Of a DNA stretch of 43,346 bases, positions 1 to 22,468 are shown one piece after another. Source of the DNA: an uncultured virus (IMG/VR IMGVR_UViG_3300020256_000017). Its lineage: Duplodnaviria; Heunggongvirae; Uroviricota; Caudoviricetes. The stretch is taken from the IMG/VR virus record IMGVR_UViG_3300020256_000017; one strand, 5' to 3'. The translations under genes and the position numbers were made by a program. Each line of letters begins with the position of its first letter. The first letter of the stretch is position 1. The notes under the pieces were generated by a model. That model was given only the letters and a program-made list of their open reading frames with translations, was not told the DNA's origin and ran no database searches.

Positions 1-523
1 CTTCTGTGAGAAGCACCCATAAGACAGGGGCGTATTCTTCGCCACTATCGTCGGTTGGGTACGTCAAAGGTGTGACTTCATTTGGCTTAAACGAAGCGAC
101 TGTCTTTTCATCGAAATATTCATGCAGGTCACTGATATCTACCATTGAGGGTGACAGTGAAATGTCTCGGCCTGAGGTGAACGTATCGCCTTCCACGGAC
201 TTTTTCGCCTCTGCTAAAAAAGCATCATTGGCTTCTTTACGGTCGGTAAACCATTGAGAGCGGTAGTCTGTGCCGAACACACCGAAGATACGTACACGTC
301 CAATTTTCTGACGGTGCTCTTTGAGCATATCGATATAGGTGATAGCGCGCGAGAGCTGTGAGTTAGGAAAAAAAGAAAATACGGCATCAAATCCCTGCCT
401 TTCTTTAATGAGATTCATGATCAAACGAACGCCGTCTCTCTCTTCGTCATTCAGATTTTCTGCATCAGGGTGAGTCGAGTTGAATTGCTGAATAATAAGC
501 GATGTGATGGTGCCGTATTGCAT
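1..523 (-). CDS. Hypothetical protein, 3'-truncated by the window edge (MQYGTITSLIIQQFNSTHPDAENL...)
   Basis: Not in the ORF track. Manual translation from ATG at 523 stays open for 174 codons to the window edge. Preceded by SD GAGGA, GTCAACAC and a GATAAT -10 box. Confidence 0.75.
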   Translation of the reverse strand, partial: MQYGTITSLIIQQFNSTHPDAENLNDEERDGVRLIMNLIKERQGFDAVFSFFPNSQLSRAITYIDMLKEHRQKIGRVRIFGVFGTDYRSQWFTDRKEANDAFLAEAKKSVEGDTFTSGRDISLSPSMVDISDLHEYFDEKTVASFKPNEVTPLTYPTDDSGEEYAPVLWVLLTE

Positions 524-526
524 GTT

Positions 527-565
527 AAATCCTCATTGTGTTGACGTATAAATTATCTCAAAAAA
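527..565 (-). promoter_or_regulatory. Promoter/leader with GTCAACAC motif (538-545)
   Basis: Minus strand reads GATAAT-ttatac-GTCAACAC-aat-GAGGA-tttaac-ATG. Confidence 0.65.
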
Positions 566-566
566 A

Positions 567-1325
567 TCATTTTAAGTCAACATTTATAGCACTCTCAAGC
601 ATAACGTCAATGAGTCCGTTGTAGTCTACATTTCCCTTTATAACGGGAAGTGTCAGCGTGAATGATTTTAACGTCTCAACATTTATTCGCTCGGGCATGG
701 CGTAACCTAGCTCAACAGACAGCGTGCGAAATGCAAGCACTTCGTTCGCTAGTTGCTCGCGTTGAACTTCATTAAAGCGCATAACATTCGACAGCATTGT
801 TATCGCAACAATATCGGCGATGCTCTCTTGCGTTGAATCAGGTGTTTTACTGTACGTTAGGAGCGGTGAAAGGTGTGTGAGTTCATGAAGATAGGCGAAT
901 AGCTGATGATGCTGAAGCAGCAATGGAAATTTTTTGGTCAAGTCTCGGTACGTTGTAAACGCGGATGATTTTGTGTCTACCAGTACAATACCGTGATAAC
1001 GATTGCGTTTAGGGTAGTATAAAAGCCATGCTTGAGGCTGGCTGTTACGAGAGGTGACAATTTTGTCAACAAAAACCTCGTGGACATGAGCGTCGTTGAA
1101 GAGCTTGGTTTTAGTTATCGCAAAAAAATCTTCTGCTTGACGATATAAGTAGAAACAGGCATCTGGCACAAAGGGGTTACGGTACCATCCTTTTTGGGGT
1201 GCTGTATTGGTAAGGGGGGATGCAGTGCAACGTTCTGGCGTTGTCTCTTCGTTTACATTCACTGGCGTGGTTGTGCAACCCACTACAACAAGTGAAGAAA
1301 ACAGGCATAGTAAGAGGCGCAACAT
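567..1325 (-). CDS. Putative lipoprotein with HExxH zinc-metallopeptidase-like motif
   Basis: Hydrophobic N-terminus ending VVGC (lipobox-like); motif YLHELTHL followed by ESIAD. Confidence 0.55.
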   Translation of the reverse strand: MLRLLLCLFSSLVVVGCTTTPVNVNEETTPERCTASPLTNTAPQKGWYRNPFVPDACFYLYRQAEDFFAITKTKLFNDAHVHEVFVDKIVTSRNSQPQAWLLYYPKRNRYHGIVLVDTKSSAFTTYRDLTKKFPLLLQHHQLFAYLHELTHLSPLLTYSKTPDSTQESIADIVAITMLSNVMRFNEVQREQLANEVLAFRTLSVELGYAMPERINVETLKSFTLTLPVIKGNVDYNGLIDVMLESAINVDLK

Positions 1326-1327
1326 CG

Positions 1328-1636
1328 CTACGGGCCTAACCAGTAGCGAGAATAGGTATCAAGGAAAGCGTTCGCTATATTTTGCTGGTGGCGATGTTTT
1401 TGACTGTAGCGCTTGCGCAATGTTCGAGAGGTTGATGGCGTGATACGCTTCAGTGTTTTTTGAGATGCTTTTCGCCAATGAGAGATTACCGCGCTTGCTA
1501 TCCGTCTTTTTGCATGATGCGATAGCTCACTAGGAAACGCAATGTGTCCTAGCTGAGGTGTTGTGCGAAGCGCCATTTCAGTGCCATCATCGCAAGTGAC
1601 ACTTATTTTCCGTTCAGATATTTCGTTGATAATCAT
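1328..1636 (-). CDS. Hypothetical basic protein
   Basis: Part of a tightly coupled minus-strand operon (2579 to 567) with overlapping starts and stops. Confidence 0.55.
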   Translation of the reverse strand: MIINEISERKISVTCDDGTEMALRTTPQLGHIAFPSELSHHAKRRIASAVISHWRKASQKTLKRITPSTSRTLRKRYSQKHRHQQNIANAFLDTYSRYWLGP

Positions 1637-1980
1637 AAGTTAACCGAATTGGTTATATTGTTTGCAAAAGTGTTGTTTTTATTGAGCCAAGCATGTCGAT
1701 TAGCCTTCATGATACGAAGGTTAAGTTGAAGTAACGTGCGGTGGTGACACTTAGGAACAGTGCTGCGCGACGCCCTTAAGTGAGACAAGATGCGTGTTAA
1801 TGCTACCCTTTGCTTCTCTTGTGTCAAGGGGATGCTTGTGTAGAGCACCCCTGTTGATGTATTGATGTCAAAGTCGCACTTTTCATGGTGAAAAGACAGC
1901 GTTTGTGGTAACAAAAAAGCGTTACCTCCCTCTATGAAATGCCCAACAGGGTTACAGGCTTTCACTGAGTTCCAGCTCAC
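1633..1980 (-). CDS. Hypothetical protein
   Basis: Overlaps both neighbours in the same operon. Confidence 0.5.
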   Translation of the reverse strand: MSWNSVKACNPVGHFIEGGNAFLLPQTLSFHHEKCDFDINTSTGVLYTSIPLTQEKQRVALTRILSHLRASRSTVPKCHHRTLLQLNLRIMKANRHAWLNKNNTFANNITNSVNL

Positions 1981-2227
1981 TATTGTTATGTAAATAGAGT
2001 TTGTGTTTTAACGGAAAGCCTACGCTGTCCGCATCAATGAAATCAATCCGAACACACCCTTCAGTTTCGATTTCAACGCTATCTACAGTCACATAGCTAT
2101 CCTTAAAGGCATTATTGTCGCCCTTGGGGTCGGCATAAGCGTCATTTTCCAAATCCAGCATCATGCCTGATTTAACTTGTTCTGCAAAAATGGTGGTAAG
2201 GGGATCCTGACTCGGCATATTAAACAC
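1952..2227 (-). CDS. Small acidic hypothetical protein
   Basis: Coupled to the upstream ORF; D/E-rich. Confidence 0.65.
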   Translation of the reverse strand: MFNMPSQDPLTTIFAEQVKSGMMLDLENDAYADPKGDNNAFKDSYVTVDSVEIETEGCVRIDFIDADSVGFPLKHKLYLHNNSELELSESL

Positions 2228-2579
2228 GCTCGCTTATGTCATCATCATCAAAAAGAGGCGCGTCAAATGCCCATGAGGTATTGTCGCATGAGTCTACTTC
2301 AAGATTGACAATAACCACGTCTTCCTCTCGTAACCGTCGACCTAAATCGCTGTTTTCGGAAATGTCTTGAAGAGCTAGGTCGCCAATATTGAAGTCTTGG
2401 CAATTGGCTGACCAAACCTGCATGCCAATATCCGTTTCACTGATCCAGCGAGATACAGCCCGTGTAATACCCGCCTTTAGGCTTTCAGCATCACAAACGT
2501 GTCCTTGTGGTTCAAATTCAATTTTGGCATAGGTGCTTTCGCTCATTGAGTTTCGAGACACGACAACAGATAATGACAT
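2220..2579 (-). CDS. Small acidic hypothetical protein
   Basis: Strong SD (GAGAGGA); first gene after the promoter at 2590-2640; D/E-rich. Confidence 0.75.
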   Translation of the reverse strand: MSLSVVVSRNSMSESTYAKIEFEPQGHVCDAESLKAGITRAVSRWISETDIGMQVWSANCQDFNIGDLALQDISENSDLGRRLREEDVVIVNLEVDSCDNTSWAFDAPLFDDDDISERV

Positions 2580-2589
2580 AGTTTCCTCT

Positions 2590-2640
2590 CTTTGTTTAAC
2601 AATAGCATAATCTCAAATGTTGACCTCAAAGTCAACATTT
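2590..2640 (-). promoter_or_regulatory. Sigma70-like promoter overlapped by perfect inverted repeat AAATGTTGAC-N6-GTCAACATTT (2615-2640)
   Basis: Minus strand TTGACT-N17-GATTAT; the 10-bp inverted repeat covers the -35 box. Confidence 0.65.
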
Positions 2641-2735
2641 TTTCATGAGATTAATGCAGGGTTTCAGAATGATGGCGCTGCTGAAAAATGATACGCTTAA
2701 GATAAAAAACCATTTAAAACAGCAGCTTACGTTTT

Positions 2736-4577
2736 CTAAAAAGGTGTATCATCGTCATAATCAAAATCTATCTCGTTCCCTTGTAGACCTCGCTGTGAAG
2801 CGTAAGTGTTTTTTAGGAACCACTCTTTCTCGTGCCCATTGTCGCTGAAGAATTCAGGAAGTAGCTTTTTAATCTCTTGTGGCATGGGGCGGTTGTTGAC
2901 GCCTTTGCATTGGTTTTTGGTAAAACCAAATTCGCCGTCGCGTGTGACTACACGGTATTCCACGGTGTATTTTTTCTCTTCAGGTGTTACTACATCAAGA
3001 ATAATACACTGCCTTGATTTTACCTGATGAAAATAACCACCAACACAATGCTTTTGTGCATAACCTTGCTCAAGCATTTCTAGCTCTGAGGTCAACTCTG
3101 TCACTTTTATTTTGCCTGTTGCGTTAAGAGCATTGACTAGCTTTTCTCCAATGGGCGTCACGCGTTCGTTCTCCATCCTAGAGAAAATGGCGTCAAGAAT
3201 TGGCATTAACGCTGCTTTATACTGTCTGTTGGACAGCGCGGGAAGTAAGGTCGTGTTATCTTCATACATCCCTATCACTAAATGAAGTCGCTTTTTCTCT
3301 AACCAGTTTAGGTTTTTCCCAAACAAGATAGCATCATCTAGAGATGTCAGGTGCTTTTCATTTTTACTGAACGCTAAAGGGTGTTTCTCTGCCATTTTTA
3401 GCGCGCGGTTAATGCATGTTGATTGAGACTTGAATACACGAGGGTTATGGTGTCTTAAGGCGCAAATAAAGATCATCAGTAGCGCATCACGACGCTCGCC
3501 CCTTTCGCATGCTTCTGCATAAAGCGCTTCTTCTTCTTCACTCTGAGGGCGACTCAACCAATCCCGTTTCATCGCGTCGCGCGCGGTCGCTTCTTCTATT
3601 AACCACTTCACGGCGCTATCATCACCTTTATTGGCGACACGATCCCATAGATAAGGAAAAATCGCGGCGGCAACACTAAAGTCGGGTGCCCCTAAAAAGG
3701 AAATGACTGACATGTAAGCGTCCACCACGCCATCGTGACAGGCTTTTGGTGAAAGCTGCATTAGCGTCATGAACGCTTCCTCTTCCTCTTCCATCGGAAT
3801 TTGAATGGTTACATCACGGAAAGTGAAGTGCTCGCATACCAGAGGCTCATTAGCTGCTTTTTCCGCGTTATTTTCTGCCATTAGCATGCCGCGCGTGTAA
3901 TTGAGCGAATAATGTCGCTCTTCGGCTTCTGCGATGGCGAGCATGGTTTGCAAACGAAGCATGGCGGTGCTGTTGACGCGAGCGTTCAATGCTCGTGACT
4001 TTCTTGCAATGCGAAGCGCGGTGTGTGCTGGTGTGTGATAGGTGGTGATATCAAGTACCCAGTGTTTAATGAAGTCTCGAAAGGCATCTGATACCGTAAG
4101 CGTCATAGACTCAAGATCAATCGCTGCTTCACATGCGTTGATGTCGAAACCGCCAATGATATCCTGAGCGCCAATTTGGGAGTGATTAAAATTGTCGACA
4201 ACAACAATATTGACGTTGCCTAAATAGCATGAGCCAATGATGTAATAATGACCTTTTTTGAAAACGGGTGAAGAAAAACCCGTCTCTCGATAACCGTGTG
4301 TGAGTGTAACAAGGTCATTGTCTGCGCGAAGTTTGGGGTTCCAAGACTCACCCATGAGCTTAGCGATATCGCTTGATTTGGGGAGAAATACGTCAATGTC
4401 GTTGAAAACGCCATCATGGAGACCTAGAAGATAAAAGATGGCACTGGCAACCGCTTGGCCTGCGGCAATGCCTGATGATGGTATGTCACCTAAACGATCT
4501 TTGATTACACGGATAACCTCGACTGGAAGTTGAGGATCATCGATAGAGCTAAAAGAAGCTAATGGTGTGTTATGCAT
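2736..4577 (-). CDS. Nucleotidyltransferase-like (CCA/poly(A)-polymerase head) N-terminus fused to a C-terminal PcfJ-like domain
   Basis: N-terminal AGQAVAS...NDIDVF, FDINAC and TALR motifs; C-terminal EQGYAQKHCVGGY...YTVE...QCKGVNN is PcfJ-like. Start moved to ATG 4577, downstream of the promoter. Confidence 0.6.
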   Translation of the reverse strand: MHNTPLASFSSIDDPQLPVEVIRVIKDRLGDIPSSGIAAGQAVASAIFYLLGLHDGVFNDIDVFLPKSSDIAKLMGESWNPKLRADNDLVTLTHGYRETGFSSPVFKKGHYYIIGSCYLGNVNIVVVDNFNHSQIGAQDIIGGFDINACEAAIDLESMTLTVSDAFRDFIKHWVLDITTYHTPAHTALRIARKSRALNARVNSTAMLRLQTMLAIAEAEERHYSLNYTRGMLMAENNAEKAANEPLVCEHFTFRDVTIQIPMEEEEEAFMTLMQLSPKACHDGVVDAYMSVISFLGAPDFSVAAAIFPYLWDRVANKGDDSAVKWLIEEATARDAMKRDWLSRPQSEEEEALYAEACERGERRDALLMIFICALRHHNPRVFKSQSTCINRALKMAEKHPLAFSKNEKHLTSLDDAILFGKNLNWLEKKRLHLVIGMYEDNTTLLPALSNRQYKAALMPILDAIFSRMENERVTPIGEKLVNALNATGKIKVTELTSELEMLEQGYAQKHCVGGYFHQVKSRQCIILDVVTPEEKKYTVEYRVVTRDGEFGFTKNQCKGVNNRPMPQEIKKLLPEFFSDNGHEKEWFLKNTYASQRGLQGNEIDFDYDDDTPF

Positions 4578-4584
4578 TGTGGTT

Positions 4585-4640
4585 TTACCCTGTTGTGTTG
4601 ACATGGTTATTATCTCAAAACAGGGGTGAGAAATCAATAA
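4585..4640 (-). promoter_or_regulatory. Promoter/leader with GTCAACAC motif (4595-4602)
   Basis: TTGATT-N17-GATAAT-N6-GTCAACAC-aacAGGG. Confidence 0.65.
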
Positions 4641-4667
4641 AAAAGGCGCGAGGCGCGCCTTTTTTTT
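4639..4667. terminator. Bidirectional intrinsic terminator
   Basis: A-run, GGCGCG-agg-CGCGCC, T-run. Confidence 0.8.
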
Positions 4668-4686
4668 GTGTTGGATTAACTAAATA

Positions 4687-5727
4687 TTAGCGAAGTCCAA
4701 AGGGGTTAACTGGTTTTACAGGGCCCGGGCCGTAGAACTTGTGGTTGCCTTCTTTGGCAGGTTTTTGGGTTACCTTGCCAACAGGGCGCAAGCTGCTAAC
4801 ACCTGCTTCAGCGGTCTTGTAGATGGGCTGTACAGGGCCCGGACCGAAGCGCTTATGATTGCCTTCTTTAGCAGGTTTTTGGGTTACCTTGCCAACAGGA
4901 CGAAGTTTACTAATGCCTGCTTCAGCGGTCTTGTAGATAGGTTGTACAGGACCTGGGCCGTAAAACTTGTGGTTGCCTTCTTTAGCAGGTTTTTGGGTTA
5001 CCTTGCCAACAGGACGAAGTTTACTAATGCCTGCTTCAGCGGTCTTGTAGATAGGCTGTACAGGGCCCGGGCCGTAGAACTTGTGGTTGCCTTCTTTGGC
5101 AGGTTTTTGGGTTACCTTGCCAATAGGACGAATCGATCCAGTCGCTTCAACGTCAACCAGCGTTGGGCCGGGGCCGTAATATTTATGGTCGCCATCTTCA
5201 GGCTCACCTTGCTCAACGTCGCCGTCTGAAGACAGTGGGGCATCGGTGGTGATGATGTAAAGCAGCGCTTCTTCTGTATCGCCTAAAGGCGCACTGATTT
5301 CAGTCGGAGAGCTTAGTGTCAAAGAGAGCGTGTTGCTGGTATAACAGCCGTCTTCTAGGCGTAACGTTGCGCCATATTCATCAGTGAAAGTAAGAGCCGA
5401 ACTGTCGTCGCCTTGCGTTGCAGAATATTCTTCAGCGTAGCTTTCAAACAGAGAGTTAGATAGTGTGGTACATCGTGCAGCGGCATTATAAGCACCGTCA
5501 AAATCAACAGACAAAGACACGCTGTAAGTGCTATTGTCGTCAGTTTTTTGAATGGCGGTGAGGTAAGTGACGTCTCCGATGTAACTTGTTGTTTCATTGA
5601 CTTCACTTAGTGTTGTGTTGCTTGGTACATCCGCAACATTATAACCCATTAGTGAGAGTTCAGCTGATGCTGCAAATGGCATCGCGCAAGCTAGGGCAAC
5701 AGATGCAAATAGAGATGTTTTCTTCAT
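4687..5727 (-). CDS. Secreted protein with C-terminal 38-aa tandem repeats
   Basis: Signal peptide MKKTSLF...AASA; repeat unit RPVGKVTQKPAKEGNHKFYGPGPVQPIYKTAEAGISKL. Confidence 0.85.
   Translation of the reverse strand: MKKTSLFASVALACAMPFAASAELSLMGYNVADVPSNTTLSEVNETTSYIGDVTYLTAIQKTDDNSTYSVSLSVDFDGAYNAAARCTTLSNSLFESYAEEYSATQGDDSSALTFTDEYGATLRLEDGCYTSNTLSLTLSSPTEISAPLGDTEEALLYIITTDAPLSSDGDVEQGEPEDGDHKYYGPGPTLVDVEATGSIRPIGKVTQKPAKEGNHKFYGPGPVQPIYKTAEAGISKLRPVGKVTQKPAKEGNHKFYGPGPVQPIYKTAEAGISKLRPVGKVTQKPAKEGNHKRFGPGPVQPIYKTAEAGVSSLRPVGKVTQKPAKEGNHKFYGPGPVKPVNPFGLR
4715..5131. repeat. 114-bp coding tandem repeat, about 3.7 copies
   Basis: Equivalent positions at 4741, 4855, 4969 and 5083. Confidence 0.9.
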
Positions 5728-5956
5728 AATGTATATCCTGTGGTGGTTGATGTGAATAATATATTCATGTTTAACAAGCGTTATTGGCTTGCTGTTTGTT
5801 TGACGGTTTAAATAATACCAGAACTGAACACAAAGTCAACAGTAAAATTTAGATAACACATAAAATTAAACAAAAATGCAACAAGTGTGATTGAAGTGGT
5901 TAAGTTGAGGTTAACGTTAGAGAGGGCAAGAAATTAGATTGGTATTGATTTGGATA

Positions 5957-6105
5957 GTAAAAGGCCGGCTTTCGCCGGCCAGTTCACCACCACTAGTGAG
6001 AGGGTGCCACCCCATTTTTTTAGCGTGAATAGCGTCAACACATCACAGAGGTCGGGGTGGCGGAGCTGTGGCAGGCACTGTTGCACCTGCTCATAAAATC
6101 TATGC
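5957..6105 (-). ncRNA. Candidate small RNA 1 with an antisense loop to GUCAACAC leaders
   Basis: TTGACA at 6134-6139; 5' hairpin 6071-6090; stem GCCACCCC/GGGGUGGC enclosing CCUCUGUGAUGUGUUGACGCUAU; ends in a minus-strand terminator at 5959-5980 that serves no annotated gene. Confidence 0.55.
5959..5980 (-). terminator. Intrinsic terminator
   Basis: GGCCGGC-GAAA-GCCGGCC-TTTT on the minus strand. Confidence 0.75.
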
Positions 6106-6324
6106 TTAGAAGATTCTCACACTTCGCTTTAGGTGTCAAGATTTTTTACAGCAATTTGTTATATGGGTGAATTAGCGACAAAAAGGTATAAATATTTAAA
6201 AAAAACACATTTATCCCGTCGTTTTTTCAGAAAAGTGATACCTTACTGTGGATAAAAAGAGACACACTTTGAACTGTTTGCTTATGTTGCGCTGCTGCGG
6301 CGAATAAACAAGAGAGAGAAAATT

Positions 6325-9300
6325 ATGAAAAGTCAATTCACGGTCAGGAAAAAGAATACGGCGATTATGTTACTTTCCGCCCTTACGGGGGGGCTGGCAT
6401 TATCAGCAGATGCCTTTGCTCAAGAAGCGAGTAATGACAAACCTATTTATCGCTTCAAAATGAACATAGAAAACAAAGTGAACGTTCCTGAGTGGATTGT
6501 CATCAATTACAACTACACACCTTGGGTGAATTCAGGTGGGTTTAGCTCTTGTTCGGGTTGGCAACCTGATCCAAACACAAAGGATTGGGGTGAATCTTTT
6601 CAACAGTCGCGTGTGTGCCAGCAGCCACAAGTAAGAAATGCGACACCTATTCTCTTCAACCCTGTTTCACAACGCACAAAATTAGGTGACACTTTCGAAG
6701 ATACCCGTTCCATCTCTGTTGGCGATTATCAAAATAATATTGGTACGCGTGACTTCATTGATGGTGAGCGTGCAGATGCATGGCCTGAGTGGTCTAATAG
6801 CGGTGCCCCTTACGACTGCTCTGTGTGGGATCCATCGACATCAGACGTAAGACTTTATGAACCCTTCACGCAAGCGCGCGATTGCTCGCAAGATCAGACT
6901 CGAAGCAGAAACGTTTACAATGTATGGGCATCGGGTGCTGAGACACCAAAGCGCATTGACAGTGAGGAACAAACCATAACGGTTGAGCAAACGCGACCAG
7001 AGATTGGGCAGCGTGATGAGATTGACGGAATTCGTCCAGACACGCCATCTCCATGGGTAGATGTAACCGGAAATTATGACTGTGCCGTTTGGTCTCCGTC
7101 TGTCGGCGGGCAATTGGCTGATTTTGGTCAGGAGAGAGATTGTTCGCGCGATCAGGAGAGAACACAGGACTTCTTCGATGTATGGGTGTCAGGTAAAGAA
7201 ACGCTCAACCGAACTGAAACCCATGAGCAAACAGTGACGCGTACGGAAAACAGAACGGTAGGCGTGACATTTACACCATGGACTAACGAGGGTGATGTAG
7301 TTAGTTGTAGTGTGTGGGGAACAGAGCCTCAGGGAAGAGTTGCCAGTTATGACCAGACACGAAGCTGTGAACAGCCTCAAACGCGAGATCGTATTTACAC
7401 CGCGGGTGGAGAGACATTAAGCACGGTTAAAGAAAGTAAAAATATTGATGTAACGCAGACGCGTAAAAACGTCATGGAAGGTGTCGTAGCTGATAGTTGG
7501 TCTTCATGGACTGACACTGCGGCCACTGTGTGTGGCGCATGGGGCGCTGCGCCTGATGCGCAAACCAGCGCATTTACACAAACGCGCGACTGCGGCACGG
7601 CTCAAGAGCGAAAGCGTGACACTTTCTATACGTGGACGCACAGTGACAATACGTTTAAAGCTGAAGAAACGGAAACGCGAACCGATCCGACAACGGAATC
7701 GCGTACAGTAACCGTAGACTGGACATCGTGGACAAACAAGAACGGTGTGCAAAATTGTTCTGCATGGTCGCCAGAGCCTGGCAGCAATACCTCTGACTAC
7801 ACACAATCAAGAGAGTGCGATCAACTTCAAGTAAGAGAACGCATTTATGCTGCATCAGGCAGTGAGCTGAAACGCGTAGAAGAATCGCAAACGGTTCGCG
7901 TATCACAATCTCGTCTTAATAAGATGGATGGCCTTGTTTATGGCGCATGGTCACCTTTTGCTGACAGTGGTGCAGAAACCTGCGGCACATTCTCACCAGC
8001 AGTAGGCGCGCAAACAGCCAACTTTAGCCAATCAAGAACATGCACCCGTCCACAAGAGCGAACCAGAGACGTCCACTACAGCTGGACTTACGGTGACAAC
8101 ACCTTTAAAGAAACGCAGACTGATACGGGTACGGCATCAAGAACGGATTCTCGTACGGTAACTGTTACACCATCGTCGTGGTCGCTAGTGGATAAAAATA
8201 CGTACAGCGGATGGACGCCAGCACCCGGTGCACGTACATCAAGCTACACGCAGTCGCGCACATTCAAGCAAGACGAGGTAAGAACATGGAGCTATGCTGA
8301 CGGTACAACAACGCTAAGCACTCGACAAGAAACGCGAACACTCGACAAGAGTGAAACACGTGCTAATACGATGAATGGCGTTAAAAATGATGCGTGGGGT
8401 GGCTGGACAAACACAGGGCCAATTAGCTGCGGCGCATGGGGGCCTGAGCCTGCTTCGCAAACAGCAAACTACCAGCAGTCAAGAGATTGTGGTACACCCC
8501 AGAAGCGCGAGCGTGACACTTATTACACGTGGGCGCACAGCTCAGATACGTTCAAAGAGACTGAAACTGAAACGCGAACTGACGGTTCAACGCAGTCACG
8601 TGCTGTTAATGTAAGCTATACTAACTGGGTAAATTATGGCTCAGTTGAAAGCTGTGACGCTTGGGGTGGTGAACCTGGCACTAAAACGGCTGATTACACG
8701 CAGTCAAGAGATTGTCAGCAGCCTCAAAAGCGTGAGCGTGTTTACAGTGTAGGCGGGACAGAGATTGCCTCTTTTGAAGAGACGAAACGTGTTCCTGTGA
8801 CGCAGACGCGAACTAATAAGATGGAAGGCATTGCTTACGGAAGCTGGTCTTCATGGAGCAATGACGGCGCATTAAATTGCGGCGGTTACTCACCTGCGCC
8901 AAGTACACAAACAGCGGACTTCACGCAAACACGAAGCTGCCAGCAGCCACAAAAGCGCACACGCGCAACGTATTATAAGTGGACATATAGCAGTAATACA
9001 TTTAGAAGTAACGAGACAGGTACGCAAAGCGTACCAAGCACACAATCTCGCACGGTTGATGTTGCAGCAGGCAACTGGTCAAATGTGCGTAACCATACGT
9101 ATTCAGCCTATACGCCAGAGCCTGGCACGCGCACGTCGAGCTATACGCAATCTCGCACGTATAAGACAGATCAGACTCGTACATGGACATACAAAGCGGG
9201 CGCTGAAACATTGAGTACGCGAAGTGAGTCTAGAACGATTGATCGGACGCAAAATCGCACCAACACCATGAATGGTCTGAAAGAAGGCTCATGGGGTGGA

Positions 9301-12267
9301 TGGACTAACACCGGTTCCATTTCATGTGGAAACTGGGGGCCAACACCATCGACGCAAACGGCTGACTTTTCTCAAACGCGAAGCTGCGGCACACCACAAA
9401 AACGCGAAAGAGACATTTTTTACACGTGGGCACACAGCAGCGATACTTTCAAAGAAAAGGATGCTGAAACACGCACTAATGGTTCGACGCAATCTCGCAC
9501 CGTTGACGTATCAGTCGGTGGTTGGAGTGCTGTGAAAGACCACACGTACTCGGGATGGACGCCTGAGCCTGGCACGCGCACATCAAATTACACGCAATCT
9601 CGCACCTACAAGCAAGATCAAAAGCGTACGTGGACATATAAGGTGGGAACAACCACGATTGATACACGTGATGAAACGCGCACTGTAGACCAAAGCCAAA
9701 ACCGTACTAACAGCATGAAAGGCATTGCTTACGGTGGTTGGTCAGGTTGGAGTAACAACGGCTCATTAGATTGTGGTGGTTATTCACCAGCGCCAAGCAC
9801 GCAAACGTCTGACTTCACACAAACACGCAGCTGTAGTCAGCCGCAGAAACGTACGCGCGCGACCTATTACACATGGGATTACAGCAGCAACACGTATCGT
9901 AATACAGAAACAGATACGCAGAATGTAAGCAGCACGCAGTCACGAACGGTTGATGTAACAGTGGGTGGTTGGAGTGCCGTGAGAAATCATACGTACTCAG
10001 CGTACACGCCGGAGCCTGGCACGCGCACGTCGAGCTATACGCAGTCACGTACTTACAAGCAAGACCAGAAGCGCACTTGGGCGTATAAGGTTGGGTCAAC
10101 TACGCTAGATACCCGTGATGAAACGCGCACTGTCAACCAAAGCCAAAACAGAACCAACTCTATGACAGGCATCGTTTATGGCAATTGGTCTGGTTGGAGC
10201 AACAATGGTTCTTTGAGTTGTGGAAATTACTCACCAGCACCAAGCACGCAAACATCCAACTTCACCCAAACAAGAAGTTGTGGTCAACCGCAAAAACGCA
10301 CGCGAGCAACGTATTATGGTTGGGCTTATAGCGACAACACATATCGCAACACAGAAACAGACACGCAAACGGTAGGCAGCACGCAGTCTCGAACAGTGGC
10401 TGTGTCAGTAGGCGGCTGGAGCTATGTAAGAAATCATACCTTTACTGGTTGGACACCTGAGCCTGGTTCGCGCACATCAAATTACACGCAATCTCGCACC
10501 TATAAGCAAGATCAAAAGCGTACGTGGACATATAAAGCTGGCACGACGACACTTGATACACGCGATGAAACTCGCACTGTAGATATGAACCAAAGCCGTA
10601 CTAACAGCATGAAAGGCATTGCTTACGGTGGTTGGTCAGGTTGGAGTAATAACGGTTCACTCAGCTGTGGTGGCTATTCACCAGCGCCAAGCACGCAAAC
10701 GTCTGACTTCACACAAACACGCAGCTGTAGTCAGCCACAGAAGCGTACGCGTGCGACCTATTACACATGGGATTACAGCAGCAACACGTACCGTAACACG
10801 GAAACAGGCACGCAGAATGTAAGCAGTACGCAGTCGCGAACGGTTGATGTAACGGGAGGGGGGTGGACCTATGTTAGAAACCACTCATTCTCAAGTTGGA
10901 CACCTGAGCCTGGTACGCGCACATCAAGCTACACCCAGACGCGCACCTACAAACAAGATCAGAAGCGTACGTGGACATACAAAGTGGGCTCGACCACGTT
11001 AAGTACGCGTGATGACACGCGTACCACAAACCAAAGCCAGAGCCGAACCAATCGCATGAAAGGTATTGCGTACGGTAGCTGGTCTGGATGGAGCAATAAC
11101 GGTTCGCTCAGCTGTGGCGGCTATTCACCAGCGCCAAGCACGCAAACGTCTAACTTCACGCAAACGCGTAGCTGTAATCAACCTCAGAAGCGCACCCGTG
11201 CGACCTACTACACGTGGGATTACAGCAGCAACACGTATCGAAACACAGAAACAGATACGCAGAATGTGGGTAGTACGCAATCTCGAACAATATCGGTATC
11301 AGTCAGTGGTTGGTCAACGGTAAGAACACACAGCCATGGAACGTTTACGCCAGCGTACGGTAACCAGACAGCAAACTACACCCAGACACGTCCTTACAAG
11401 CGTGATGTGACAAGAACGTGGACGTATAAAGCCGGTTCTAACACGTTAACAACGCGCCCTGAGAACACGACATGGGATCAGACGCAAAGCCGTACGGTTG
11501 CTGTAACTCACAATGGGTGGCAGGATGTTGGCAGTCCAACCTGTGGAAGCTGGACGGGAGGTAGTACGCAGACTCGTTCTTGTACGCAACCGCAACAAGT
11601 TACGTATGTGCATAAGATAAACGGAAATACGGTGCATACGCAAACTAAGAATGGCTCGCGAAGCTACACCCAAAGTCGTACACTAACGACGCAGCAGTCA
11701 ACCGGTGCATGGCAACGTACAGGATATTCATGTACATCATGGACACCTGCGCAGTCTTCATATTACACGTTTGAAACAAAAACGCAGACGCAGCGCTGTA
11801 CAGAGAATAGAAGACGTGCGATTACCACTACGACGAACTACAGTGATGGCAGTACTCCGACAACGAATGTCACTTACGAGTATGACACCGTGGTAACGAA
11901 TCCAACGCGACGCCGTTCGGGGACAAAGCAGGATAGCGTTGTGAGTACGGAGACAAGGACCACGGAATCACAATCTGACGCTAACGTAAGACGACGCTTA
12001 GTGTCGCCTGAAGCGAAGTATACTGAAGCGGAGTTTTGTGCGCGCAACCCAATTGGTTTTTATCGTTCTGACGAGTACACGTGGAGCGAGACAACGATTG
12101 TGACGAAGTACTACTATTGGGATACGTATCAGTCCGGTCGAGTGCTACAGCGTAGCTCAACGCCGTATAAAACCACAACATCAAGTAGCTTTAGTGGATT
12201 CAAGGCGCTGGTGCCTAACACGAACCGCACTGGAGTATGTGGCGGCAGTGGAGGTTCAACTTCCTAG
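6325..12267 (+). CDS. Giant secreted Thr/Ser/Trp-rich repeat protein with thrombospondin type 1 (TSR)-like modules; putative adhesin
   Basis: Signal peptide ending ADAFA; repeated WSxW..C..W/YxP....QTRxC..PQxRxR modules. Confidence 0.85.
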   Translation: MKSQFTVRKKNTAIMLLSALTGGLALSADAFAQEASNDKPIYRFKMNIENKVNVPEWIVINYNYTPWVNSGGFSSCSGWQPDPNTKDWGESFQQSRVCQQPQVRNATPILFNPVSQRTKLGDTFEDTRSISVGDYQNNIGTRDFIDGERADAWPEWSNSGAPYDCSVWDPSTSDVRLYEPFTQARDCSQDQTRSRNVYNVWASGAETPKRIDSEEQTITVEQTRPEIGQRDEIDGIRPDTPSPWVDVTGNYDCAVWSPSVGGQLADFGQERDCSRDQERTQDFFDVWVSGKETLNRTETHEQTVTRTENRTVGVTFTPWTNEGDVVSCSVWGTEPQGRVASYDQTRSCEQPQTRDRIYTAGGETLSTVKESKNIDVTQTRKNVMEGVVADSWSSWTDTAATVCGAWGAAPDAQTSAFTQTRDCGTAQERKRDTFYTWTHSDNTFKAEETETRTDPTTESRTVTVDWTSWTNKNGVQNCSAWSPEPGSNTSDYTQSRECDQLQVRERIYAASGSELKRVEESQTVRVSQSRLNKMDGLVYGAWSPFADSGAETCGTFSPAVGAQTANFSQSRTCTRPQERTRDVHYSWTYGDNTFKETQTDTGTASRTDSRTVTVTPSSWSLVDKNTYSGWTPAPGARTSSYTQSRTFKQDEVRTWSYADGTTTLSTRQETRTLDKSETRANTMNGVKNDAWGGWTNTGPISCGAWGPEPASQTANYQQSRDCGTPQKRERDTYYTWAHSSDTFKETETETRTDGSTQSRAVNVSYTNWVNYGSVESCDAWGGEPGTKTADYTQSRDCQQPQKRERVYSVGGTEIASFEETKRVPVTQTRTNKMEGIAYGSWSSWSNDGALNCGGYSPAPSTQTADFTQTRSCQQPQKRTRATYYKWTYSSNTFRSNETGTQSVPSTQSRTVDVAAGNWSNVRNHTYSAYTPEPGTRTSSYTQSRTYKTDQTRTWTYKAGAETLSTRSESRTIDRTQNRTNTMNGLKEGSWGGWTNTGSISCGNWGPTPSTQTADFSQTRSCGTPQKRERDIFYTWAHSSDTFKEKDAETRTNGSTQSRTVDVSVGGWSAVKDHTYSGWTPEPGTRTSNYTQSRTYKQDQKRTWTYKVGTTTIDTRDETRTVDQSQNRTNSMKGIAYGGWSGWSNNGSLDCGGYSPAPSTQTSDFTQTRSCSQPQKRTRATYYTWDYSSNTYRNTETDTQNVSSTQSRTVDVTVGGWSAVRNHTYSAYTPEPGTRTSSYTQSRTYKQDQKRTWAYKVGSTTLDTRDETRTVNQSQNRTNSMTGIVYGNWSGWSNNGSLSCGNYSPAPSTQTSNFTQTRSCGQPQKRTRATYYGWAYSDNTYRNTETDTQTVGSTQSRTVAVSVGGWSYVRNHTFTGWTPEPGSRTSNYTQSRTYKQDQKRTWTYKAGTTTLDTRDETRTVDMNQSRTNSMKGIAYGGWSGWSNNGSLSCGGYSPAPSTQTSDFTQTRSCSQPQKRTRATYYTWDYSSNTYRNTETGTQNVSSTQSRTVDVTGGGWTYVRNHSFSSWTPEPGTRTSSYTQTRTYKQDQKRTWTYKVGSTTLSTRDDTRTTNQSQSRTNRMKGIAYGSWSGWSNNGSLSCGGYSPAPSTQTSNFTQTRSCNQPQKRTRATYYTWDYSSNTYRNTETDTQNVGSTQSRTISVSVSGWSTVRTHSHGTFTPAYGNQTANYTQTRPYKRDVTRTWTYKAGSNTLTTRPENTTWDQTQSRTVAVTHNGWQDVGSPTCGSWTGGSTQTRSCTQPQQVTYVHKINGNTVHTQTKNGSRSYTQSRTLTTQQSTGAWQRTGYSCTSWTPAQSSYYTFETKTQTQRCTENRRRAITTTTNYSDGSTPTTNVTYEYDTVVTNPTRRRSGTKQDSVVSTETRTTESQSDANVRRRLVSPEAKYTEAEFCARNPIGFYRSDEYTWSETTIVTKYYYWDTYQSGRVLQRSSTPYKTTTSSSFSGFKALVPNTNRTGVCGGSGGSTS
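7474..11500 (+). repeat. 447-450-bp (149-150 aa) coding repeat, about 9 units
   Basis: Unit-start Met codons at 7474, 7924, 8371, 8821, 9268, 9715, 10162, 10609 and 11056. Confidence 0.85.
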
Positions 12268-12283
12268 TAACGTTTATGCAAAC

Positions 12284-12312
12284 AAAAAAAGGCCACACGA
12301 GTGGCCTTTTTT
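12284..12312. terminator. Bidirectional terminator
   Basis: AAAAAAA-GGCCAC-acga-GTGGCC-TTTTTT. Confidence 0.85.
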
Positions 12313-12393
12313 ATTGATTGTTTAGCGAGAGATAGTCAACTTTAGTCGTGAGTAGTTAACGCTAATGGATTTGAAAATATACCTAGAGCGACG

Positions 12394-12672
12394 TTACTGT
12401 TCAGAGCGCGTGCGTCTTTCTATCAGTGACACCATATTCTCTCTTCCCTGACTCAGTAATGCTTCAAGCTCTTCGCAACGCCCACTGTGAGACATACATG
12501 TTTGATATGCTGACTCAGTTAGGTTTAAGTAGCGGTCCCAAGCGATCAGGCATTGTGCTTGGATATTATTACATGTAGGCTCTTCGCTTCTCACATCATC
12601 GGCTACAGATTGACAGGCCGACAATGCGAGCATTGATAAAGATATGAATAGCGTGTGGTGTAGACGTTTCAT
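12394..12672 (-). CDS. Small Cys-containing lipoprotein
   Basis: Lipobox LSAC; SD AAGGA. Confidence 0.7.
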   Translation of the reverse strand: MKRLHHTLFISLSMLALSACQSVADDVRSEEPTCNNIQAQCLIAWDRYLNLTESAYQTCMSHSGRCEELEALLSQGRENMVSLIERRTRSEQ

Positions 12673-12686
12673 AGATTTTCCTTAAA

Positions 12687-13091
12687 TTATACGGCCATGG
12701 GTAGCGCGTGTGAGGGGGGCTGTATCAACGAGGACGTCGATGCGCCTTTTGATAGTCGATACAACAAGTTGCTTAGTGTTAGATTGAGTTTACTCAGAGG
12801 ATAAACTTTTATAATAAGAAGCGCTTTATTCAGTAAAACAAAGAGCGACTGAGGTAAAACATAGCTTTGGGGGCCAACCCGCAGTGTGCAGTAACTGTCA
12901 CAGTCATATATGACAGTAACGTTGTCGCCAACCTTTCTTTCTCTCTGGCATGAATACAGTGGGCATGTCCACGTTGATAAGGCCTTTAAGTTAAGGGTGA
13001 GCGTTGAACCCGTTAATTGGTTTTCCAGCGAAATAGCACCGTCCGCTCTCAGTGTTATGCGATGAGAACGAAAAGAAAAACAGTCCTGCAT
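12687..13091 (-). CDS. Hypothetical protein
   Basis: SD AGGAG upstream of the ATG. Confidence 0.6.
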   Translation of the reverse strand: MQDCFSFRSHRITLRADGAISLENQLTGSTLTLNLKALSTWTCPLYSCQRERKVGDNVTVIYDCDSYCTLRVGPQSYVLPQSLFVLLNKALLIIKVYPLSKLNLTLSNLLYRLSKGASTSSLIQPPSHALPMAV

Positions 13092-13194
13092 GAATTCTCC
13101 TGTGGCAAGCAGCTTTCATTGTTATAAAGGGGGCTACTTGATGCAATGTGATGACAAGATGAATTATGGCATAAATAGGAAGAGATTTCAATAG

Positions 13195-13308
13195 AAGAGG
13201 TGCGCTCCCTCCGTTTCCTTATGCTTTATGATAGCTGTCAACACATACCAGAGAACACCGAGGGGAAACGTTGGTGAGGGAGCTGGGTAACCGTGGATGG
13301 CTACCTTA
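13195..13308 (-). ncRNA. Candidate small RNA 2, paralogue of 5957-6105
   Basis: TTGCTT-N16-TATTAT upstream; 5' hairpin GGUAGCC/GGUUACC; CAGCUCC; stems GCUCCCUC/GAGGGAGC and CGUUUCC/GGAAACG enclosing CUCUGGUAUGUGUUGACAGCUAUCA. The 3' end is uncertain. Confidence 0.5.
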
Positions 13309-13651
13309 TAGTAATAATAGGGTATATTGATATAAAAGCAATAGGAAGATAAAAAAAAGCCTCCCTAAAAAGAGAGGCGAGAGTATTGCGTGTCCAAGCA
13401 CAATACGTTGGGGTGCACCCAAAAAATCAGAGGAATGATAAAAGGTGCACTGTAGAAACAATAACACTGAAAAATAGAAGTTTCAATAGCAAGATAAGTT
13501 TTTACACTTTTTTGTAGTGTGAGTGAGTGTGTGTAAAAAAACCTGACACTATTTGGGTAAGTTAACGAAATGAAGGGGTTTAATTTTGGCACGACTATTG
13601 GATAAATCTTCCTATAGCAAGATAATTAACAAATTAACCCAAGGATAAAAA

Positions 13652-14454: not shown

Positions 14455-14511
14455 TTTCAAAATCTCGCGTTTCTTGGTATAGTTGTGTGGTCAACACAGC
14501 AAGAGACCACC
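14455..14511 (+). promoter_or_regulatory. Promoter/leader with GTCAACAC motif (14490-14497)
   Basis: TGgTATAGT-N6-GTCAACAC-agc-AAGAG...ATG. Confidence 0.6.
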
Positions 14512-17772: not shown

Positions 17773-17828
17773 TCCCCAAGTTGTGTTGACGGGAATTATT
17801 ATCTCAGACTTAACCTATAAAAACAACA
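17773..17828 (-). promoter_or_regulatory. Promoter/leader with GTCAACAC motif (17783-17790)
   Basis: TTGTTT-N17-GATAAT-N7-GTCAACAC-aactt-GGGG. Confidence 0.6.
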
Positions 17829-17829
17829 T

Positions 17830-18123
17830 TTATTTGTCGTCGTGATAAGGCGAAGGCAGTGACGCCCCATGAAGTAGATGCACTGTTGCCGTTTTATAGA
17901 GCACCATTGCTCGTTTGCCTTTATCAGTGGGTGCGATGACGGCATCCAGCTTGCCGTGACGATGGAGGCACAACAGCTTGTTTTGTGCAACATGCCCCCC
18001 ACAGCGTCTTTCTTTCTTAATGTTGGTTAATGATGCAGTAGAGATAGGTTTAATTGCCTCACTGGACACCAACGATGGCGAAAGTAGCGAAGTAATGAAA
18101 AAGCCTGCAAGGATAAATCTCAT
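17830..18123 (-). CDS. Small secreted hypothetical protein
   Basis: Signal-peptide-like N-terminus; SD GAGG. Confidence 0.6.
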   Translation of the reverse strand: MRFILAGFFITSLLSPSLVSSEAIKPISTASLTNIKKERRCGGHVAQNKLLCLHRHGKLDAVIAPTDKGKRAMVLYKTATVHLLHGASLPSPYHDDK

Positions 18124-19559: not shown

Positions 19560-19620
19560 GCTGTTATCCTCATCGTGTTGACGTGTACAGAATATCAAGT
19601 GGTGACGGTGCGGTCAACAA
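19560..19620 (-). promoter_or_regulatory. Promoter/leader with GTCAACAC motif (19575-19582)
   Basis: TTGACC-N17-TATTCT-N6-GTCAACAC-gat-GAGGA. Confidence 0.7.
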
Positions 19621-19860: not shown

Positions 19861-21522
19861 ATGCAGACGTCCACATACACCACGCTGATCAAGTCAGCCG
19901 ATATTGATGCCGAAACAGAGAGTTCACTTTCTGCGTATGCGGCGTTGTTCGGGCGTGTGGAACGCAAGCTTTACGCAAGCCTTTGCGCGGATAAAATGAC
20001 GGCCAATGAGCGAAAACGTCACTTTATCAGCACATATCAGATCAGCGCTAGGCAATATAATGCGGTGCTGCGCACGTTAACCGGCAAGCTGGATTCAAAA
20101 CGCGAACTGGATAAGCTTTATCAGGTTGATAAAAAAGAGCGTATCGAAGCGATCTCAAAAACCATTGAGCGACTTCGCGGAAAATCCGATATGCTTTCAA
20201 AAACCGGTGGTGTGCCGTCTGAAATCCAAAAACTCCGCTTTAAAGCGCACCAGAAATCCCGGTATCGGGCCCGGCTATCTACTCAAATTGAGAAAATTGC
20301 GGATAACATCGGCAAGATCCCCGCCATGTGTTTTGGATCGAAAAAGTTGTTTAACAAGCAATTTTTTCTCAAAGAAAATAACCTGAACAACCATGCTGAA
20401 TGGCTTGACGAGTGGCAAAGCTCCCGTTCATCACAGTTCATGGTGCTGGGCTCGAAGGATGAAACCTGCGGCAATCAGGGCGCGCAACTGTACGTTGATA
20501 ACGACGGTGAGTTCAGGTTGTCTTTGCGCCTACCAGATGCTCTGGGTGGCGGTAAAGTTGAGCTGTCAGGTTTCGATTTTAACTACGGAAAGTCCAATAT
20601 ATTAGCGGCCTGTGCGGAGAATGAGCGTCGTCGGGCAGCTAACGTGAAAGCGCTGACCCGTTCGTCACCTTGGGTGAAAGATCGGAAAACCGGTGAGTTG
20701 CGTCCGCAAACCAAAAATGAAGTGTTGTCTTCGTATGGTCAACCCTTAACCATGCGCTTCATGCGCCATAAATTCGGCTGGACACTGGCGATGACCGTCG
20801 AAGAGCCGGCCCCTGAAGAGATAGCAGGAAGCTACGAAAATGGCTGCTTAGGCGTCGATGTTAATGCTGACCACCTAGCCGTGTGCGTCGTCACTCAGGA
20901 TGGTAACAAAAAACATGTCGAAGATATCCCCTGCCCGGCATCCGCCAAAGGACTGACAACTGGGCAACGCATGGCGATGATCGGCGATGCCGTGAAACGT
21001 GTCGTGGAGGTTGCCAAGCAACACCATGTCGGCGTCGGGATTGAAAAACTAGACTTCAGCAGGAAGAAGCAAGCCATGAAGGAAACCGCAAATAAGCATC
21101 ACAGAGCGATGCTGTCCGCCTTTGCGTACGATATGGCGCTGTCGCTGATTGAACGCCGGTGCTACCGCGAGGGCTTACCCTGCAAAGCCGTCAACCCGGC
21201 CATGACATCGATTATCGGAATGTTTAAATACCATTCCACCCAAAATACGACCCATCAGGCCGCCGCGCAAGTCATTGCGCGCCGGACGCTGGGACTCAAA
21301 CATGATCGCATTCGTTTTTCCGTGCCACATAATGTTGGTACACAACTTTGCAGTGCCCGCTCAAAGACCGTGAGTATTGACGGCGGCCCGCTGCAACGTT
21401 GGGGGAAAGTGAAAGCAATTGTGAAGAAACACACTGCTTTGTTCAAACAGCCCGAGAAAACCGGTCCACCGGTTATTCTCACGGTGAACGAACATAAATT
21501 GCAGTGTGTTTCACTGGCGTAG
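19861..21522 (+). CDS. tnpB: TnpB-related RNA-guided RuvC protein
   Basis: RuvC-I GVDVN, RuvC-II IEKLDF, VNPAMTS, non-canonical RuvC-III region HQAAAQVIARR; no zinc finger. Confidence 0.85.
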   Translation: MQTSTYTTLIKSADIDAETESSLSAYAALFGRVERKLYASLCADKMTANERKRHFISTYQISARQYNAVLRTLTGKLDSKRELDKLYQVDKKERIEAISKTIERLRGKSDMLSKTGGVPSEIQKLRFKAHQKSRYRARLSTQIEKIADNIGKIPAMCFGSKKLFNKQFFLKENNLNNHAEWLDEWQSSRSSQFMVLGSKDETCGNQGAQLYVDNDGEFRLSLRLPDALGGGKVELSGFDFNYGKSNILAACAENERRRAANVKALTRSSPWVKDRKTGELRPQTKNEVLSSYGQPLTMRFMRHKFGWTLAMTVEEPAPEEIAGSYENGCLGVDVNADHLAVCVVTQDGNKKHVEDIPCPASAKGLTTGQRMAMIGDAVKRVVEVAKQHHVGVGIEKLDFSRKKQAMKETANKHHRAMLSAFAYDMALSLIERRCYREGLPCKAVNPAMTSIIGMFKYHSTQNTTHQAAAQVIARRTLGLKHDRIRFSVPHNVGTQLCSARSKTVSIDGGPLQRWGKVKAIVKKHTALFKQPEKTGPPVILTVNEHKLQCVSLA

Positions 21523-21612
21523 CTGCTCACGTCAGGCGCGAAAGCGTTGGTTCAAAACTGATGATCAGGTTTGAACGCATTAATTTGAGCGGTTTAATAA
21601 TATTCATGAGGT
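21523..21612 (+). ncRNA. Putative 3' part of the TnpB omegaRNA (scaffold to 21592, then flank-derived guide)
   Basis: CTGCTCA/TGAGCGG closing stem, GAAA-tetraloop hairpin and TTCAAA..CTGA/TCAG..TTTGAA hairpin right after the tnpB stop. Confidence 0.5.
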
Positions 21613-21631
21613 CAACACTCGTGTAGGCCAC
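21595..21631 (+). promoter_or_regulatory. Leader with GTCAACAC motif (21611-21618)
   Basis: TAATAT-N7-GTCAACAC-tcgtgt-AGG...ATG. Confidence 0.55.
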
Positions 21632-22400: not shown

Positions 22401-22468
22401 TTGACAATGGCAACACTCTCAGGTAGATTGTTGATTATGCAGTCAACACAACCAGTTTAGAGGCACTT
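22401..22468 (+). promoter_or_regulatory. Promoter with near-palindrome TGTTGAT-N6-GTCAACA and GTCAACAC motif (22442-22449)
   Basis: TTGACA-N17-TAGATT, then the palindrome, then SD GAGG. Confidence 0.7.

Follow-up and report, generated by a model that had tools for sequence, protein, structure and literature searches.

The timing of anti-defence and establishment genes is known mainly from a few model plasmids, in which it is set by protein repressors or single-stranded promoters. Protein repressors such as ArdK/CUP and KorA/KorB address many establishment and anti-restriction promoters through a repeated short site, and conAn of pLS20 is said to bring about antitermination in a conjugative element. 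Antisense RNAs are used as well. In F-like plasmids, the antisense RNA of the FinP/FinO system covers the traJ leader and its ribosome-binding site (RBS), with transient derepression in new transconjugants. The loops of the c4 RNA pair with short repeated sites ahead of the RBS, which keeps early and anti-repressor functions off. In phage P1, c4 RNA blocks ant, according to the part of PMC8198154 cited here. In enteric bacteria, the small RNA (sRNA) GcvB silences its targets by masking ACA translation enhancers just upstream of the Shine-Dalgarno (SD) sequence, as described in the cited part of PMC3879156. Here we describe a putative antisense system in IMGVR_UViG_3300020256_000017, a stretch of 43,346 nt from an uncultured marine mobile element; the whole stretch analysed is called the window. 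A preliminary description had flagged two minus-strand elements, e1 and e2, as related sRNAs with loops antisense to a motif (called here the tag) shared by many gene leaders. We compared these elements, the tag and their predicted pairing with the known systems.

The leader tag and its complement in two paralogous elements

The 8-mer GTCAACAC has 13 exact matches on the two strands of the window. The mean expected from 100 dinucleotide shuffles is 1.58 (standard deviation 1.53, largest 8), and none of the shuffles reached 13. In 10 of the 13 copies the context is the same: sigma70-like -35 and -10 boxes, a gap of 6–12 nt, the 8-mer, an SD stretch, and an ATG 11–19 nt on. All ten read in the sense direction of the gene, and their positions are 545, 4602, 17790, 19582, 35667 and 40635 on the minus strand and at 14490, 21611, 22442 and 24093 on the plus strand, and the leaders are named below by these positions. 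The copy at 21611 is without a convincing promoter, though the spacing of tag, SD and ATG is kept. In an alignment of the ten promoters anchored on the motif, only the eight columns of the tag formed an invariant block, and the -35 and -10 boxes varied. The tag holds an ACA triplet once or twice and stands 3–10 nt ahead of the SD. It follows the -10 box by 6–8 nt in seven of the ten promoters, which makes it span about +1 to +8 in the mRNA, and by 11–12 nt in two others. Thus, the claim that at least ten leaders share the motif was confirmed. Its reported position ahead of the SD also stands, but the tag lies more precisely at about +1 of the transcript and not merely upstream of the SD.

Two of the remaining copies are the reverse complement of the tag (the anti-tag), at 6034–6041 in e1 and 13237–13244 in e2. 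The last one (30649–30656, plus strand) is ambiguous. It stands right after the ATG of the open reading frame (ORF) 30645, a 592-aa metalloprotease-like gene, and its predicted pairing with e1 is -10.6 kcal/mol; about 1.6 chance copies are expected, and this may be one of them. Among 45 one-mismatch variants of the tag, a single one, GTCATCAC at 13148–13155 downstream of e2, stands behind a promoter-like -10 box. One further tagged promoter was found in a related contig (L122), within 4 kb past the window start.

e1 is a candidate sRNA of about 150 nt (5957–6106, minus strand) with a predicted fold of -60.8 kcal/mol (z -3.49 versus shuffles). An 8-bp 5' hairpin (6090–6069) is followed by CAGCUCC (6068–6062) and by a 9-bp closing stem (6061–6053 with 6014–6006) that encloses the anti-tag region; then come GCACCCUC (6007–6000) and a terminator. 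The seed UGUGUUGAC, the complement of the tag and the following A, occupies the top loop (6034–6042, minus strand). The promoter (6113–6139, minus strand), read by eye, consists of TTGACA (6139–6134), a 15-nt spacer and an extended -10 TGtGAGAAT (6121–6113). The intrinsic terminator (5957–5980, minus strand; placed by the scan at 5980–5963) has a 7-bp all-GC stem, a GAAA loop and a short U tract. A separate promoter at 5839–5812 belongs to the next minus-strand gene, so that the e1 terminator serves no gene, as had been proposed.

e2, a paralogue of e1 of about 107–118 nt (13195–13312, minus strand), has a predicted fold of -41.3 kcal/mol (z -4.37 versus shuffles). It is built of a 5' hairpin (13305–13286), CAGCUCC (13285–13279), a long closing stem and GCACCUC (13203–13197), with the same seed UGUGUUGAC in the top loop (13237–13245, minus strand). 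The exact blocks CAGCUCC, CUCUG, AUGUGUUGAC, GCUAU, GCACC and CCUCU occur in both elements in the same order. These blocks lie mostly in predicted unpaired tracts, and the 5' hairpins and closing stems differ in sequence; the layout and the differing stems had been noted before, and both the block comparison and the folds agree with this. One common 10-mer was observed between e1 and e2, versus 0.01 expected from shuffles. In each element a 5-bp helix can close a loop of 12–14 nt that holds the seed, and no ORF is common to the two. e1 and e2 are paralogous folded non-coding units, and the loop of each is the exact complement of the invariant leader tag.

In the whole window no Rfam family was found at gathering score, and around e1 and e2 there were only chance-level matches (E above 1); this agrees with the earlier remark that no known family was recognised in them. 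A pattern scan of metagenome contigs gave nine loci, of which seven came from five related contigs (L120–L122 and L124–L127) and two were chance. The related loci share 93–98% identity with the window, and none of them has a change in e1 or e2. In L127, where 6.5% of the columns differ overall, the e1 RNA has 0 differences in 150 positions and the spacer past its terminator (5728–5956) has 31 in 229. The unchanged block, 5943–6108, coincides with the predicted e1 transcript. By hand calculation, the chance of 0/150 differences at a uniform 6.5% is about 4e-5. The e1 promoter has two differences in 39 positions, at 6109 and 6114. For e2, 0/118 differences were found both in L120, which differs by 7.6% overall, and in L126, which differs by 5.2%. 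All four tag sites covered by diverged relatives are invariant.

Outside these contigs, neither e1 nor window 1–8000 had a DNA match in the plasmid and phage collections, and the 346-aa neighbour of e1 had no tblastn match there. The PcfJ-like protein encoded in the window gave only partial matches, 26–32% identical, in five marine or other plasmids. In viral contigs, 119 loci matched the 14/15-base loop pattern, all of them by chance, and the longest extension was 20 nt; a longer pattern gave none, and two protein scans were without a match. In genome contigs, the loop pattern gave two loci, both chance matches inside coding DNA.

Two side observations concern the elements themselves. In L127 the -10 box of the e1 promoter is changed from GAGAAT to GAGAGT; the second change, 5 nt downstream, creates TATAAG, which may be a shifted -10, and the RNA body is identical. 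Directly upstream of e2 there is a third sRNA-like unit, e3 (13352–13452, minus strand), with three hairpins (fold z -7.08), a promoter TTGAAA-17-TATTGT (13486–13458) and a terminator at 13378–13359 with eight T. Its inner loop UUCCUC is anti-SD-like. It has no predicted preference for tagged leaders (median -2.0 kcal/mol versus -1.2 for other leaders), and GCACC recurs in e1, e2 and e3.

Predicted pairing, proposed action and its alternatives

Pairing was scored by an RNAup-like sum of the duplex energy and the opening of both partners in 22-nt windows. For e1, the median total was -10.1 kcal/mol with the 10 tagged leaders and -4.5 with 35 other gene starts (one-sided Mann–Whitney p 8e-4), and for e2 it was -7.7 and -1.65 kcal/mol (p 6e-4); the comparison is partly circular because the tags are defined by their complement. 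The predicted cost of opening the 9-nt seed is 2.6 kcal/mol for e1 and 3.5 kcal/mol for e2, where it ranks 3 of 109 windows. According to the model, the tag site is usable for pairing once structure is charged. The best predicted pairs are e1 with leader 35667 (12 bp, -14.6 kcal/mol) and e2 with the DndB-like leader 22442 (-14.8). Both duplexes given as examples in the preliminary description, e1 with the leader of the gene starting at 40615 and e2 with the DndB-like leader, were reproduced. It had also been suggested that the CCUCU tract pairs with the SD itself. This is possible, but the extended duplexes gain little after opening costs: e1 with leader 40635, when the CCUC tract is included, has a duplex energy of -19.4 and a total of -6.0 kcal/mol.

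Complementarity outside the seed was noticed in both elements. Nucleotides 107–124 of e1 (window 6000–5983), between the closing stem and the terminator, are a partial complement of the leader of the 346-aa gene (5735–5751, minus strand). The predicted total is -9.6 kcal/mol, the second best of the 35 untagged starts, and this stretch could be a second seed. In e2, the conserved 3' tract GCACCUCUU (13197–13206, minus strand) and the SD region AAGAGGUGC of gene 18123 (ORF 17830–18123) are perfectly complementary over 9 nt, with a total of -8.7 kcal/mol.

We put it at slightly better than an even chance that e1 and e2 are sibling trans-acting anti-leader sRNAs, which would cover the ACA-rich tag by the RBS in the way GcvB does and repress the tagged set. 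That they are transcribed, that they pair in the cell and what sign the effect has, we infer. In each RNA the top loop of a long hairpin would present UGUGUUGAC. In at least ten mRNAs with short leaders, this loop would pair with the ACA-rich GUCAACAC(A) at about +1 to +9. The duplex would lie 11–19 nt before the start codon, inside the ribosome footprint, and would mask an ACA-type translation enhancer. The tagged leaders are only about 20–27 nt long. The region covered by the initiating 30S subunit includes a 9–12 bp duplex at the 5' end of leaders of this length, and with the duplex in the footprint and the enhancer masked, lowered translation would be expected. Translation, and probably also stability, of the whole tagged set would be lowered at once. 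The most speculative step is the timing, a burst on entry into a naive cell and then shut-off; the silencing in established cells and the zygotic induction after transfer proposed in the preliminary description are conjectural too. The sRNA reading is supported by the finding that the anti-tag occurs only in two paralogues in which the common sequence is mostly unpaired and the stems differ. Leader 21611 has no promoter nearby and yet keeps its tag, SD and ATG at the usual distances, which fits a role at the RNA level.

A broader scheme is offered tentatively, and we doubt that it holds as a whole. The 5'-terminal tag of 8–9 nt would act as an address label that marks establishment and anti-defence genes, among them orphan methylases, a helicase and the DndB/DndC-like genes, and also boosts their translation. 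Strong tagged promoters would fire in the naive cell, and the accumulating anti-tag RNAs e1 and e2 would then shut the set off together. The same genes of a related element arriving later would be silenced too, which would add an RNA-only layer of immunity or exclusion.

Several observations weigh against the sRNA reading. The e1 promoter has a 15-nt spacer and was missed by the consensus promoter scan. The e2 promoter, TTGCTT-16-TATTAT, also read by eye, is weak and under the scan threshold; the scan found no e2 terminator, and the -35 box of the next promoter (13191–13163) overlaps the e2 3' end, so that the ends of e2 are uncertain. The sigma70-like promoter earlier ascribed to each element thus stands for e1, by eye and not in the scan, and is weak for e2, and an e2 transcript with defined ends is not supported. 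With regard to the generic features of an sRNA gene (own promoter, Rho-independent terminator, no conserved ORF), e1 has them all, its promoter being that read by eye, and e2 has a weak promoter and no terminator. The e1 seed ranks just 22 of 141 windows in accessibility. Because of local structure, predicted totals are weak at leader 21611 (-1.6 kcal/mol with e1, -0.1 with e2), at 40635 with e2 (-3.5) and at 14490 (-5.5 and -4.6). The paralogue stems have the same layout and different sequences, and their alignment is arbitrary. The short helices flanking the seed differ in register by 2 nt between e1 and e2 and were therefore not counted as covariation. In L126 the spacers next to e2 are also unchanged (0/287 and 0/103), so the conservation is not specific to e2 and its signal is weaker. 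No diverged homologue of e1 or e2 was found in plasmid, phage, viral, genome or metagenome collections. A further point comes from the Alteromonas mediterranea megaplasmid pAMCP48-600 (NZ_CP018025.1), in which an ACA-rich box, TTCACACAC, stands before the SD in 27 copies versus 0 of the reversed control. Twelve of the 27 contexts were read: 10 are sense leaders, two (L135, L136) cannot clearly be read as leaders, and no copy belongs to an antisense RNA. Such boxes thus exist without an anti-tag RNA. By analogy, ACA-rich leader boxes may be common on elements of this type, and anti-tag RNAs may be a special addition here.

The position of the tag at about +1 of sigma70-like promoters, and its invariance as an 8-mer 6–8 nt after the -10 box in seven of ten, also count against an RNA target. 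They would suit a DNA operator at the transcription start, bound by a repressor of the element or by another DNA-binding protein, with the copies in e1 and e2 being further operators or incidental. On pAMCP48-600, which is loosely similar, comparable promoters are controlled by a palindromic operator: a large promoter family (including L131, 114928–155578) has the palindrome AATCAnnnTGATT between the -35 and -10 boxes. The site in the window is asymmetric, only 8 bp long and without an accompanying repeat or dyad. It lies 11–12 nt from the -10 box in two of ten promoters, and at 21611 the ATG distance is kept with no promoter. No candidate regulator was identified, the only helix-turn-helix (HTH) match being a truncated ORF at 42924. 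An operator leaves unexplained why the sole other copies occupy loops in two paralogues that are folded, conserved and promoter-bearing and have additional conserved flanks, and we consider it unlikely. It is also improbable, in our estimation, that the pairing is real and that only its sign or purpose differs, namely protection of the 5' end from decay (activation), or superinfection immunity or incompatibility against incoming relatives. The duplex would indeed involve the very 5' end of the mRNA, and the cited part of PMC8198154 describes c4 of phage P1 as an antisense RNA that acts in immunity. Yet a duplex of 9–12 bp on a leader of about 20–27 nt falls within the region covered by the 30S subunit, and the tag is an ACA-type enhancer, the masking of which lowers translation in the GcvB cases given in the cited part of PMC3879156.

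The plus strands of e1 and e2 still read tag and SD. This suggests that the e1 and e2 genes may have originated from inverted copies of a tagged leader. It also allows the two elements to be read as relic or live plus-strand tagged leaders (tag, SD, short ORF), for example a pair of the type I toxin-antitoxin kind. In e1, the plus strand indeed has the tag, AGAGG and a GTG-started ORF of 37 codons (6057–6170), with the start 15 nt after the tag. However, the promoter scan found no plus-strand promoter upstream of either tag, e2 lacks a counterpart of this ORF (those of 25 and 20 aa on its plus strand are unrelated), the minus strand is the only one on which the e1 terminator works, and the conserved block coincides with the minus-strand transcript. 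A small toxin ORF with its own promoter, as in type I pairs, was not found, and the 37-codon frame is in e1 only. We regard this explanation as very unlikely. Hardly credible is the last one, in which the tag is a target or guide of an RNA-guided DNA binder, the TnpB-like ORF at 19861–21522 acting like a TldR repressor. In this 553-aa ORF there is a C-terminal domain of the TnpB type (TIGR01766, 35.6 bits at a cut-off of 32), but neither the zinc finger nor the third RuvC Asp is present. Its 3' flank is strongly folded (z -4.25), and a tag stands 89 nt past its stop. TldR guides can be 9–11 nt long and target promoters; they are attached 3' to a scaffold of about 100 nt, and their targets are beside a 5-nt target-adjacent motif (TAM), as stated in the cited part of 10.1101/2023.11.30.569447. 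In our case, the homology of the 3' flank with two Pseudomonas megaplasmid copies stops at GAGCGG(T), 17–18 nt before the tag, so that the guide would be a different sequence. The tags have no conserved TAM-like motif on either side, and the anti-tag is internal in e1 and e2 and is not a 3' guide. The His-for-Asp, zinc-finger-less state is also found in a copy beside an IS607 transposase. We rejected a TnpB guide on the grounds of the right-end homology that stops before the tag, the lack of a TAM-like flank and the internal anti-tag.

The tagged genes and the nature of the element

Genes were assigned with Pfam, PHROGs and NCBIfam. The tagged set includes three C5 DNA methylases (one of them the second gene of its unit), a PIF1/Dda-like helicase, a PcfJ-like protein, a DndB-like/DGQHR protein, a 1006-aa DndC/PAPS-reductase-like protein, a cpYpsA (SLOG) protein and three unknowns. 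On the minus strand, the tag is at the leader head of a 174-aa gene (tag 538–545, ATG 523; motif in context), of the PcfJ-like gene (4595–4602, ATG 4577; invariant in L127), of two C5 methylase genes (17783–17790, ATG 17766, and 19575–19582, ATG 19559; both assigned by profile match, with the tag invariant in relatives), of the cpYpsA gene (35660–35667, ATG 35648), which is the best predicted partner of e1, and of a 159-aa gene (40628–40635, ATG 40615) followed by the third C5 methylase gene. On the plus strand, it heads the leaders of the helicase gene (14490–14497, ATG 14512; profile match, invariant in relatives), of the DndB-like/DGQHR gene (22442–22449, ATG 22469), the best predicted partner of e2, and of the DndC/PAPS-reductase-like gene (24093–24100, ATG 24114; profile match). 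The tenth tag (21611–21618, plus strand) is ahead of a 236-aa gene (ATG 21632). This gene set is the type of cargo described for establishment or anti-defence regions.

The tag at 21611 stands 17–18 nt past the right end of a solo IS607-type remnant (19861–21610, plus strand) that contains the 553-aa TnpB-related ORF with His replacing the third RuvC Asp. The ORF is 36% identical to the copy beside an IS607 transposase on the Pseudomonas sp. FeN3W megaplasmid CP136011.1, and no transposase gene was found upstream of the remnant in the window. Immediately upstream of a tagged promoter, a CsrA homologue is encoded at 35716–35901 on the minus strand (NCBIfam PRK01712, 117.6 bits). Many tagged leaders have a GGA-containing SD of the form (A/U)GAGGA(A)U, and the CsrA of the element could act on the same leaders. 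Two genes next to e1 have internal tandem repeats, seen by self-offset BLAST: the 346-aa gene at 4712–5132 (114-bp offset, 89–97% identical) and a 1980-aa gene at 9487–11303 (447-bp offset, 78–83% identical).

The preliminary description had called the element a plasmid. This label is not supported, since no relaxase, type IV secretion system or replication gene was identified in the window with the three databases and the tagged genes are on both strands. A conjugative-plasmid leading region, which would be expected beside an origin of transfer and a relaxase and with a single gene orientation, is likewise not supported. Related contigs span 230 kb and 486 kb, and to the left of about 2732 the 486-kb contig and the window diverge. 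At the right end (41381–43346) there are a thymidylate synthase gene, a ribosome-hibernation-factor-like gene and a NUMOD1/excisionase-like HTH ORF. Judging from these genes and from the divergence of the 486-kb contig, the element could be an island inside a larger replicon rather than a plasmid.

Comparison with known systems

Among the papers listed on the leading region and zygotic induction and on plasmid-encoded trans-acting sRNAs, none describes such a system, and a search with the seed 9-mer gave only unrelated papers among the matches listed. If e1 and e2 act as proposed, a pair of sRNAs that reaches at least ten separate promoters by way of a common, invariant 5' tag would make a compact regulon built of RNA only, and its seed and tag would be directly testable. 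It would suggest short ACA-rich leader boxes on other marine megaplasmids as regulatory handles, and it would provide a natural design for multiplex gene silencing by a single short tag.

In the layout of its promoters, the window resembles pAMCP48-600, where many short-leadered genes, including cytosine methylases, are also behind similar promoters. The difference is the palindrome AATCAnnnTGATT in the promoter spacer of the megaplasmid, and the sole link between the two is a PcfJ-like protein, 32% identical. Unlike ArdK/CUP, KorA/KorB and conAn, which are proteins on DNA or antitermination, the repeated site in the window matches an RNA loop. FinP is similar in that an antisense RNA lies over a leader and RBS and offers an RNA route to a burst on entry. 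However, FinP is encoded in cis opposite a single target, whereas e1 and e2 are read as trans-acting and multi-target, and no FinO/ProQ domain was found in the window.

The c4 RNA of phages P1 and P7, which forms the Rfam C4 family with the P4 CI RNA, is likewise a small folded antisense RNA of a mobile element. It acts on its own operon, whereas at least ten separate units over 40 kb and on both strands would be addressed here. The Rfam C4 model gave nothing at gathering score in the window and no match at E up to 10 in 5850–6250 and 13050–13450.

GcvB is alike in its mode of pairing: a G/U-rich single-stranded seed masks ACA enhancers by pairing just ahead of the SD in many mRNAs, according to the cited part of PMC3879156. 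In the window, the seed UGUGUUGAC is predicted to pair with GUCAACAC(A) 11–19 nt before the ATG in 10 leaders. The Rfam GcvB model had no match at E up to 10 in the same two regions. The seed of e1 and e2 is in a hairpin loop, and that of GcvB in the open R1 tract; the target here is 5'-terminal in the mRNA and an 8-mer that does not vary, whereas that of GcvB is a degenerate box. In addition, regulator and targets are here on one mobile element, and the regulator comes as two siblings with different stems. Thus, the proposed system is a multi-target antisense sRNA of a known kind, and what is new is that it is borne by the element, comes as siblings, presents its seed in a loop and is aimed at an invariant 5' tag.

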